A DNA stretch of 64,000 bases from Alphaproteobacteria bacterium (GTDB taxonomy: Bacteria > Pseudomonadota > Alphaproteobacteria > UBA9219). The stretch is from contig WREW01000001.1 in the NCBI GenBank assembly GCA_009779135.1, positions 94,233-158,232 on the forward strand, given 5' to 3'. The notes beneath the pieces were generated by a model, which saw only the letters and a list, made by a program, of their open reading frames with translations, had not been told where the DNA came from and made no database searches. The translations under genes were made by a program, and so were the position numbers. Positions 60,702-63,222 of the stretch are shown here, in pieces. Every line of letters starts with the position of its first letter. Position 1 is the first letter of the stretch.

Positions 60702-61085
60702 ATGAAGAAAGAAACAATGAACAAAAGCATGCAATTCGCACTGATTGCAGCGGTCTTCACAATGGCAATGCCTGGGCTTGCCATCGGTCAGGACATGAGC
60801 AGTGTTATCACAGACGTTGGTACAACCCAGTTGTCTGTTATTCCGTGGATTTTGACAATCGTGTGTTACATCATGGGCGCGTTTTTCATGGTGAAGGGCG
60901 CACTGAAGCTGAAAAAGCACGCGGAAAATCCTTCAGGTCAGGACACAGTCGGTCAGGGCGTTGCCAACTTAGCTGCTGGTGCTGCTCTTGCCGCTATCCC
61001 GATGTTCCAGGGTATCATCTTCAGAACATCGAAAATGAGTGGTGATGAACAAGGTTGGCAGGCTTTCCAAACCACGTTCAACTAA
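60702..61085 (+). CDS. DotP/IcmD-like small inner-membrane protein
   Basis: 127 aa; two TM helices; KKHAENPSGQDTVGQGVANLAAGAALAAIPMFQGIIFRTS motif shared with the preceding gene; strong RBS AGGAGAG. Confidence 0.5.
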   Translation: MKKETMNKSMQFALIAAVFTMAMPGLAIGQDMSSVITDVGTTQLSVIPWILTIVCYIMGAFFMVKGALKLKKHAENPSGQDTVGQGVANLAAGAALAAIPMFQGIIFRTSKMSGDEQGWQAFQTTFN

Positions 61086-61783
61086 TGAACCAACTACCGC
61101 TTTCCCTTGGCGTTCGGCACAACACCGACGCCAAGGGGGCGGTTTTAAAAAACCGCCCGCTTACAGCCGAACAAATCCAAAAGACTTTGAGCCGCGACAA
61201 GTTCACTTGTCGCTGTTGTGGTTTTATATCACGCAAGTTTCACCGCGTTGTCTTTCAGCGCGATCTTGATCCCAAGGCATCGGAAAGAAATCTTGTCACC
61301 TTATGCACTTTTTGCGAGATGACGACCGCTTTAGACCGCGCAGGCCTTACAGGCGCCGGTTATATTATATGGCTTCCCGAACTTAGCCAGATAGAGCTCA
61401 GCAGCCTTGTGCGCGCTCTTTTTGTCGCGCGCGCCGGTGAGGATACAGCTCTGGCGGAAACTGCGCGACGCATGCTTGATGTGCTGACCGCGCGCCGTGC
61501 CGAGGCTAAAAAGCGTCTGGGGACAGATGACCCGCTGCTTTTGGCCACGGCCCTGCATGAAATGGTGAATGAAAAACCCGCCGCCCGCGCCCCCAAGCTT
61601 GAAGGCTTGCGCTTTCTTCCTTTAGATCGCTATTTTGTGGCCAATCAGGGCAAAGATGTGAATATGTTTCCAAGTATCCTTGATTATTGGGTGTCGCCCG
61701 AAGGCCCCTTTGGCCAAACCCCTGTCTCAACATGGCCGGCCTTGTTTGAAAAACGCATCAAGGCCGCGCAAGATCAGACCTGA
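61085..61783 (+). CDS. DotN/IcmJ-like cytoplasmic Cys-rich (putative Zn-binding) T4BSS protein
   Basis: Start overlaps the previous stop (TAATG); CRCCGF...CTFC CxxC-type motifs; ~230 aa; position after the icmC/icmD-like genes, as icmJ in Legionella. Confidence 0.45.
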   Translation: MNQLPLSLGVRHNTDAKGAVLKNRPLTAEQIQKTLSRDKFTCRCCGFISRKFHRVVFQRDLDPKASERNLVTLCTFCEMTTALDRAGLTGAGYIIWLPELSQIELSSLVRALFVARAGEDTALAETARRMLDVLTARRAEAKKRLGTDDPLLLATALHEMVNEKPAARAPKLEGLRFLPLDRYFVANQGKDVNMFPSILDYWVSPEGPFGQTPVSTWPALFEKRIKAAQDQT

Positions 61784-61914
61784 AAATCTGCCTGCCGCAT
61801 CTATCGTCCCTGCCCCCTTAAAGGCGCATGGTTTTTGCTTTTCTTCTTGTCAACGCGCCCCTTTCATGATGAGATAGCCGCCTTGTAAAACAAAATGTTA
61901 CGAGGATAAATCCG

Positions 61915-63144
61915 ATGAACGCATCTCTTCTTGATGACCTTTTGCGCGGCGTTGCCATTGAAACACCGCCCCGTGGCCTTGCGGGCAAGCTGAAAGAGAG
62001 CGAGAAAGAAAAACGCTCTCTTATCGTAAAGCTCGGCTTTGACCCGACCGCGCCGGATCTTCATCTCGGCCATGCGGTGGTTCTGCGCAAAATGCGCCAG
62101 TTTCAGGATGCGGGGCACAAGCTGGTGATTATCATCGGCGACTTTACCGCGCGCATCGGCGATCCCACAGGGCGCAACAAAACACGCCCCCCCCTTTCGC
62201 CGGAAACCATCAAGCAAAACGCGCTGACCTATCTTGACCAGCTCTCCAAAGTTTTGGATATGAGCCGCGAGAAATTGAAAGTCTGTTTTAACGATGACTG
62301 GCTCGGCGCCATGACATTCCGCGATGTGATCGGCCTTCTTGCCAAAGCCACCGTAGCGCAGCTCTTGCAGCGCGAGGATTTCAGCAAGCGTTACAACGAA
62401 GGCACCGCAATCGGCATGCATGAAATGCTTTATCCCTTGATGCAGGGCTATGATTCGATTGAGATCAACGCGGACATCGAAATGGGCGGCACAGACCAGC
62501 TTTTTAATTGCCTTGTCGGTCGTGCGCTGCAGGAGGCTGAGGGCAAAAGCGGACAGATCGTTCTTTCCATGCCGCTCCTCGTCGGCCTTGACGGCAAGGA
62601 GAAGATGAGCAAATCCTACAATAACTATATCGGCCTGACCGAGCCGCCGCATGACATGTACGGCAAAGCCATGTCCATTCCCGATACGCTTTTGCCGATG
62701 TATCTGGAGCTGGCCACGACCTTGACCGCGCAGGAAATTGCGCGATTGAAAGAAGATCTGGCCGCAGACAAAGTCAACCCCATGGATGTAAAAAAACTTG
62801 TCGCCGCCAATATCGTGACCCAGTATCACGATGAAAAAAGCGCAGAAGAAGCGGCGCAGTATTTTTATAACCAGTTTCAGAACAAGGCAGATGAAGAAAA
62901 AAGCTATGAGCCGTTTGCCGCCGCGCAGATTTACGAAGGCGCGCAGGAACTGGCGCTTCTTGATCTCTGCGCCAGACTTTGCCCGCAGGAGTCGAAAAGC
63001 CAGTTGCGCCGCCTCATCGCCGCTTCAGCCGTCAGCGTGGATGGAGAAAAACTCACAGACCCTGCCGCGTTGATAAAGCCGCCGGTTGATAAAGAAATCC
63101 ACTTCCGCATCGGCAAACGCGGCTTTTACGCCATTATATCCTGA
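61915..63144 (+). CDS. tyrS: tyrosine--tRNA ligase
   Basis: HLGH motif ([10 protein letters not shown]) and KMSKS motif ([10 protein letters not shown]); C-terminal S4 domain; 409 aa. Confidence 0.95.
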
Positions 63145-63145
63145 T

Positions 63146-63222
63146 GTCCCCGTAGCTCAGCTGGATAGAGCGTCGGTTTCCTAAACCGCAGGTCGGAGGT
63201 TCAAATCCTCTCGGGGACGCCA
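63146..63222 (+). tRNA. tRNA-Arg (anticodon CCT)
   Basis: GTCCCCG/CGGGGAC acceptor stem; TAGCTCAGCTGGATAGAGC D-arm; anticodon loop TTTCCTAAA; GGTTCAAATCC T-arm; CCA encoded; begins 2 nt after the tyrS stop. Confidence 0.9.

Follow-up and report, generated by a model that had tools for sequence, protein, structure and literature searches.

A cluster of type IVB secretion system (T4BSS) genes of the Dot/Icm type was analyzed in a 64,000-nucleotide stretch of DNA from an alphaproteobacterium (GenBank assembly GCA_009779135.1, contig WREW01000001.1, positions 94,233 to 158,232), referred to below as the window. The last operon of the cluster closes with an IcmJ-like gene, and behind it stand the core gene tyrS and a tRNA-Arg gene (Table 1). 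The ATG codon of the IcmJ-like gene at 61085 shares bases with the TAA stop codon of the preceding 127-aa open reading frame (ORF) in a TAATG overlap. In a phmmer search against PDB, the predicted protein matched the Legionella IcmJ/DotN chains 5x1h, 5x42 and 6sz9 over residues 32-181 (E = 6e-16). Both CxxC pairs of the zinc site are kept, with CrcC and CtfC aligned to CqfC and CcfC of DotN. The best NCBIfam match was IcmJ_DotN_IVB (NF038221) with 76.2 bits, which is under the equivalog cut-off of 100. Judged from its sequence and place, it qualifies as a homologue of IcmJ/DotN and as its positional orthologue, but not as a curated equivalog. An identical protein is deposited in GenBank as MCL2468755.1 (locus tag FWF24_00765) from a metagenome-assembled genome (MAG) named 'Alphaproteobacteria bacterium'.

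The tyrS product was recognized by TIGR00234 with 345.5 bits, above the cut-off of 113.8, and the GC content of the gene (53.7%) is similar to that of its flanks. The spacer between IcmJ and tyrS was scanned for a consensus terminator and a sigma-70 promoter, neither of which was found in it, and tblastn revealed no IcmB remnant there. The junction sequence occurs only once in the window. The sequence-only reading had placed an IcmJ-like gene, as the end of the cluster's operon, about 130 bp from tyrS and tRNA-Arg. This arrangement was confirmed by ORF coordinates, the PDB and NCBIfam matches, TIGR00234 and ARAGORN, and the gap measured 131 bp.

All genes between 30387 and 61783 form a single block on the same strand. 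The T4BSS core genes DotB, DotC, DotD, DotH, DotG, DotI, IcmT and DotA are all present, DotA lying just outside the window. The T4BSS ORFs of the window are all intact and have lengths near those of their orthologues, with 72-75% identity in the case of DotI and 60-76% in the case of DotH. The NCBIfam scores of the system genes are under the equivalog cut-offs, except for IcmT/TraK and the DotA/TraY subfamily. The 90-aa IcmT/TraK ORF is shorter than the usual length threshold; its place between DotB and the pil genes is that of traK in R64.

No window ORF matched the Pfam or NCBIfam families of VirB4/IcmB, of type IV coupling proteins (TraG/TrwB/T4SS-DNA_transf) or of DotM. The only Walker-A proteins encoded between 30 and 62 kb are DotB and PilQ. 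To read past the window, 7.7 kb on the right and 5.8 kb on the left (~13 kb) were taken from the ENA contig ERZ27257295:k141_401178. When four IcmB, three DotM and three DotL proteins from relatives were used as tblastn queries against the window and these flanks, only noise was obtained at E<=1. No locus on the source contig was recovered when metagenomes were scanned with an IcmB alignment. The Thalassospira plasmid protein in the DotO position has no PDB, Pfam or NCBIfam match, so that the identification of IcmB leans on the names given in the sources and on weak VirB4/TraC matches.

The left flank contains housekeeping genes only. On the right, the opposite strand carries a DotA/TraY-family gene at a distance of 3.7 kb from the IcmJ stop codon, behind a small AbiL islet. 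Its product scored 285 bits with TIGR04346 (cut-off 100). The gene converges on tyrS and tRNA-Arg, and recQ lies upstream of it. In the C-terminal part of the protein, a low-complexity stretch with many Ser, Thr and Pro residues is duplicated. The T4BSS region is thus not ended at the tyrS boundary. According to the sequence-only reading, no DotO, DotA or DotL followed the sharp boundary; this stands for IcmB/DotO and DotL, as also for DotM, none of which is at the locus, but not for DotA, which was invisible to that reading since the gene is located shortly beyond the right end of the window.

The gene order was then compared with that of relatives. When species-representative genomes were scanned with IcmJ, 19 loci with 38-59% identity were obtained, all from MAGs labelled Micavibrio, Alphaproteobacteria, 'Bdellovibrionales' or Rhodospirillaceae, and the IcmJ relatives at 38-62% identity belong to Micavibrio or Alphaproteobacteria MAGs. 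The predicted source is the chromosome of a Micavibrionales-like alphaproteobacterium. Context look-ups and the metagenome scan with the IcmB alignment showed a common order, GcrA-like-DotI-DotJ-DotH-DotG-DotF-TraQ-TraR-IcmJ-IcmB-DotM-x-DotL-GT-Wzy, and the order of the operon at 53187-61085 recurs in dozens of related loci. IcmJ stands directly upstream of IcmB in 57 of the 70 informative metagenomic IcmB loci, and the series IcmJ-IcmB-DotM-x-DotL is unbroken in loci L023, L026-28, L032, L042 and L099. The ORF downstream of IcmJ in the three distant relatives L018-L020 encodes ~1000 aa and comes from a family of >1100 members, named IcmB by both NCBI and JGI.

No IcmB follows IcmJ in 12 of the 15 informative species-level genomes. 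In the nearest relatives that can be read past IcmJ (L112, with 62% identity, L004-L008, L114 and L118), the gene abuts groEL(-), followed by groES(-) and mostly also spoU(-). The tyrS gene as the IcmJ neighbor is specific to the lineage of the window, whereas the lost adjacency of IcmJ and IcmB is wider. The break at IcmJ is common to relatives and old. The DotI...IcmJ operon is present in MAGs labelled Micavibrio (L006, L007, L114 and L118). Among relatives, the Dot/Icm operon is cut at varied points: L111 keeps only TraR-IcmJ-IcmB-DotM together, L118 and L009 begin at DotF, and L025 and L106 have no DotL after DotM. These differing cut points indicate that fragmentation of the system is recurrent in the order.

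The counterpart of a terminal IcmJ is an IcmB block standing free. We found 13 metagenomic IcmB loci without IcmJ within 1.5-10 kb upstream, five of which have the synteny ComM-like(-) / IcmB-DotM-x-DotL-GT in common. Some free-standing IcmB loci have flanking housekeeping genes in common with terminal-IcmJ loci. Both halves were present in a single MAG, GCA_053526855.1 (JAIVSC01), on different contigs. Its contig 17 carries DotF-TraQ-TraR-IcmJ / groEL(-), with an IcmJ 58% identical to that of the window, and on its contig 8 the series IcmB-DotM-208aa-DotL-GT is surrounded by core genes such as ileS and pgi. The GC contents of the IcmJ and IcmB contigs are 53.7% and 53.9%, and both proteins were found in the Logan runs SRR14517964 and SRR14517975. 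As in the window, IcmJ of this MAG closes the T4BSS operon and abuts core genes. Unlike in the window, its neighbor is groEL(-), not tyrS, and the operon is also cut upstream, starting from DotF. Since a genome with a terminal IcmJ has IcmB-DotM-x-DotL elsewhere, a split but complete system is the best explanation.

We consider it probable, with good confidence, that the locus belongs to an ordinary split, multi-locus Dot/Icm-type system and that the IcmJ end is a chromosomal rearrangement breakpoint. According to this model, a vertically inherited, chromosomal Dot/Icm-type (type IVB, MPF-I) system with an R64-like type IVb pilus would have been encoded by an ancestral long operon, ...DotF-TraQ-TraR-IcmJ-IcmB-DotM-x-DotL, which chromosomal rearrangements in the lineage would then have cut. 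One recurrent cut would fall exactly at the 3' end of icmJ, and in the source genome it would have placed icmJ against tyrS and tRNA-Arg. By analogy with the related genome, the IcmB(DotO)-DotM-x-DotL block probably lies at an unlinked locus among housekeeping genes. To our knowledge, the sole described role of DotN is within the DotL-DotM-DotN coupling complex. This role, the arrangement in GCA_053526855.1 and the intact, conserved state of the retained genes argue that the system is most likely complete and functional, spread over several loci as that of Legionella. The assignment of Micavibrionales as positive for a protein-secreting type I T4SS (pT4SSi) in a published survey (PMC9418006) supports the same conclusion.

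Some points weigh against this explanation. The source genome's own IcmB, DotM and DotL have not been located, none of them being encoded in the 64-kb window, the 7.7 kb on its right or the 5.8 kb on its left. Nothing recognizable from the source contig or MAG was seen among the best 120 of 1150 IcmB matches and the best 120 of 419 DotM matches, a result that is uninformative. The linkage of the two halves in GCA_053526855.1 is that of a metagenomic bin, not a closed genome. Finally, the IcmJ-tyrS junction itself was found in no relative. The sequence-only reading had left two possibilities for the missing genes, that they are encoded elsewhere or have been lost. The finding of DotA and the presence of the block on another contig of a related MAG favor the first.

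True loss of IcmB/DotO, DotM and DotL is the strongest competitor and is unlikely. In this case, the ~25 remaining genes would be a decaying remnant or a repurposed envelope/pilus machine able to run with neither a VirB4-type ATPase nor a coupling protein. The lack of any signal for the three genes in ~78 kb of contig would fit, as would their absence from the source contig among the best matches given above. The first Micavibrio genome paper (M. aeruginosavorus ARL-13, 2011), which reported no sign of a type IV secretion system (PMC3189940), points in the same direction. Against loss, none of the retained genes is disrupted, and they are conserved in numerous species with IcmJ proteins just 38-62% identical to that of the window. 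The tie of DotN to the coupling complex also speaks against it, as does the related MAG that has a terminal IcmJ and keeps IcmB-DotM-x-DotL elsewhere. Moreover, marine Micavibrionales were scored as pT4SSi-positive under a rule in which IcmB is mandatory (PMC9418006). The terminal IcmJ in 12 of 15 relatives and the split MAG make recent loss, like misassembly, unlikely. There is only a slight chance that the source, and perhaps close relatives, run an envelope machine with no IcmB/DotO, DotL or DotM and so no VirB4-type ATPase or coupling protein. If true, this would be remarkable, for example as an organelle powered by DotB or PilQ for prey attachment or attack in an epibiotic predator.

It is very improbable that the cluster is a recently acquired, truncated IncI-like plasmid or integrative and conjugative element, inserted between tRNA-Gly and tRNA-Arg, whose traU-traY/trbABC end was deleted. 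The region is indeed bracketed by tRNA-Gly(CCC) at 29353 and tRNA-Arg(CCT) at 63146, and its order traH-I-J-K / pil / traM-N-O-P-Q-R-T mirrors the R64 map. However, no relaxase or integrase family was matched in Pfam among the ORFs of 30-62 kb, and no replication gene is present. The T4BSS borders have no att-like direct repeat in common, the longest common word being 13 nt (E = 0.08). The GC content of the T4BSS region (54.3%) is equal to that of the core (52.7%), and in this comparison the compositional deviation is confined to the AbiL islet. The closest plasmid IcmJ homologues are ~30% identical, whereas identity reaches 62% in chromosomal Micavibrionales. In addition, DotB scored 378 bits with the Dot/Icm DotB model of NCBIfam and 249 bits with plasmid TraJ, and orthologous clusters stand among housekeeping genes in many related genomes. 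The absence of an integrase, a relaxase, an att repeat and a GC deviation allowed us to conclude that the T4BSS region is not a recent island, nor is it a truncated plasmid. An assembly artefact, that is, a contig chimeric at IcmJ/tyrS while the true genome runs icmJ into icmB, is barely credible: the contig was assembled from short metagenomic reads (MEGAHIT-style name k141_401178), but the junction sequence is unique and contains no repeat that could cause a mis-join, GC is continuous across it, a second contig has mostly the same neighbors (the same protein is found on the 302,459-bp NCBI and 301,934-bp ENA contigs), and IcmJ is terminal in many independent assemblies of relatives.

In Legionella and Coxiella, Dot/Icm genes at multiple loci are standard. 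The system described here has in common with Legionella Dot/Icm the genes for DotB, DotC, DotD, DotH/IcmK, DotG/IcmE, DotI/IcmL with a DotJ-like paralogue, IcmT, IcmJ/DotN and DotA. It is likewise chromosomal, has its genes at more than one locus and shows no relaxase. Unlike in Legionella, where icmJ is directly followed by icmB, icmJ is followed here by tyrS. Within the cluster lie an R64-type thin-pilus operon and an accessory module of nine genes, and the host belongs to a predatory order of alphaproteobacteria instead of being an intracellular parasite of the gammaproteobacteria. The gene order is closest to the tra/pil map of the IncI1 plasmid R64, with traH(DotD)-traI(DotC)-traJ(DotB)-traK(IcmT), pilL-N-O-P-Q-R-S and traM-N-O-P-Q-R-T(IcmJ). 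In contrast to R64, no traU-traY follow traT/IcmJ, the nikAB relaxase and replication genes were not found, and the cluster is chromosomal with core-like GC and only distantly similar to plasmid IcmJ homologues.

The class of system is already on record in this order. Needham et al. (2022; PMC9418006) reported pT4SSi in marine Micavibrionales MAGs, defined by a mandatory IcmB, six or more accessory genes and the lack of a relaxase. Our locus is of the same bacterial order and system class, and IcmB-named homologues are abundant in related MAGs; the mandatory IcmB has so far not been located in the source genome. The survey gave presence only, and the gene order, the fragmentation and the break at IcmJ are not described there. 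On our reading, the boundary is an ordinary rearrangement. The sharp IcmJ end should accordingly be seen as the breakpoint of a multi-locus system, not as evidence of decay.

The wider Micavibrio context is more interesting than the boundary itself. Predation is obligate in Micavibrio-like bacteria, which attach to other bacterial cells. In contrast to the 2011 report (PMC3189940), a chromosomal Dot/Icm-type system is conserved, together with a thin pilus, in MAGs labelled Micavibrio and in their relatives. In the literature, we found the system in Micavibrio only in passing, in the 2022 survey (PMC9418006). No paper linking Micavibrio with a T4BSS was found, with the limit that the phrase 'Dot Icm' may miss the spelling 'Dot/Icm', and none was found that examines effector delivery into bacterial prey by a Micavibrio Dot/Icm-type machine.

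Table 1. Features of the T4BSS region and its right-hand border, in window coordinates unless marked L001.
Feature	Position	Strand	Evidence and remarks
Accessory module m1-m9, nine genes	30387-39990	+	Pfam/NCBIfam: only SLT (m2, m8/TrbN-like) and DsbC/G-like (m9)
DotD	40399-40944	+	Pfam
DotC/TraI	40922-41785	+	Pfam
DotB ATPase	41761-43134	+	Pfam, NCBIfam
IcmT/TraK, 90 aa	43342-43614	+	NF038220, 81 bits (cut-off 40)
R64-like type IVb thin-pilus operon	43818-53052	+	Pfam; NCBIfam pilP_fam
GcrA-like	53187-53693	+	Weak Pfam and NCBIfam GcrA matches, N-terminal 80 residues
DotI/IcmL	53767-54423	+	Pfam/NCBIfam
DotJ-like (second DotI-like gene)	54390-55163	+	Pfam/NCBIfam
DotH/IcmK	55360-56496	+	Pfam/NCBIfam
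DotG/TraO	56477-57982	+	Pfam/NCBIfam; TraO is the best NCBIfam match
DotF-like	58044-59369	+	Pfam/NCBIfam
TraQ-like	59529-60563	+	NCBIfam; TraQ is the best match
TraR-position ORF, 127 aa	60702-61085	+	Position
IcmJ/DotN homologue, 232 aa	61085-61783	+	PDB DotN match and NCBIfam; closing gene of its operon
IcmJ-tyrS spacer, 131 bp	61784-61914		Probable rearrangement breakpoint when compared with relatives in which IcmB follows IcmJ
tyrS, tyrosine-tRNA ligase, 409 aa, core gene	61915-63144	+	TIGR00234; Pfam tRNA-synt_1b and S4
tRNA-Arg, anticodon CCT	63146-63222	+	ARAGORN; 1 bp past the tyrS stop codon
AbiL islet, 2.27 kb, 35% GC	63223-64000, on to L001:14404	+	GC values; PADLOC; Pfam
DotA/TraY-family gene, 910 aa	L001:14405-17137 (window-equivalent 65489-68221)	-	TIGR04346

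The remaining genes of the block were also assigned. The thin-pilus operon encodes PilL (with a TcpQ domain), the PilN secretin, PilO, PilP, the PilQ ATPase, PilR and two PilS-like prepilins. PilV and a shufflon were not encountered in the thin-pilus region, where no search was aimed at either. The GcrA-like gene heads the DotI...IcmJ operon, and this position is kept in L006-L008, L010, L011, L025, L026 and L114. Its product may couple the system's expression to the cell cycle.

The accessory module lies upstream of DotD in the window and downstream of IcmJ or DotL in relatives; its homologues follow IcmJ in L005, L007, L008 and L114. The L114 homologue of m1 has a Pfam Ivy (lysozyme-inhibitor) domain and adjoins an SLT protein, with which it could form a muramidase/inhibitor pair. 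The DsbC/G-like protein m9 presumably recalls TrbB of R64. The products of m4, m5 and m6 (516, 543 and 451 aa) are paralogous to one another and fall into no Pfam or NCBIfam family. A split DotO was considered for the ORFs of 516 and 543 aa (33067-36181) and rejected: neither contains a Walker A motif, BLASTP gave no match to a plasmid protein in the DotO position, and both belong to the paralogous accessory family.

The AbiL islet adjoining tRNA-Arg is a defence islet with the abortive-infection pair AbiLi and AbiLii. AbiLi starts at 63430/63431 and has 407 aa with a Pfam AAA_21 ATPase domain (PADLOC E = 1e-66), and AbiLii has 194 aa with a Pfam RloB match (PADLOC E = 3e-4). No integrase was found in the islet, and no direct repeat of the tRNA-Arg 3' end flanks it. 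The left part of the window (1-30256) is ordinary chromosome with sodB, rph, the suf operon, pepN, flagellar genes, folKP, polA, tRNA-Gly and uppP. It includes a low-GC patch at 15001-16000 (39%) between a helix-turn-helix regulator (13485-14174, minus strand) and the flagellar genes. A 228-aa ORF in this patch (15046-15732, minus strand) gave only a weak match to a toxin with a restriction-endonuclease fold.

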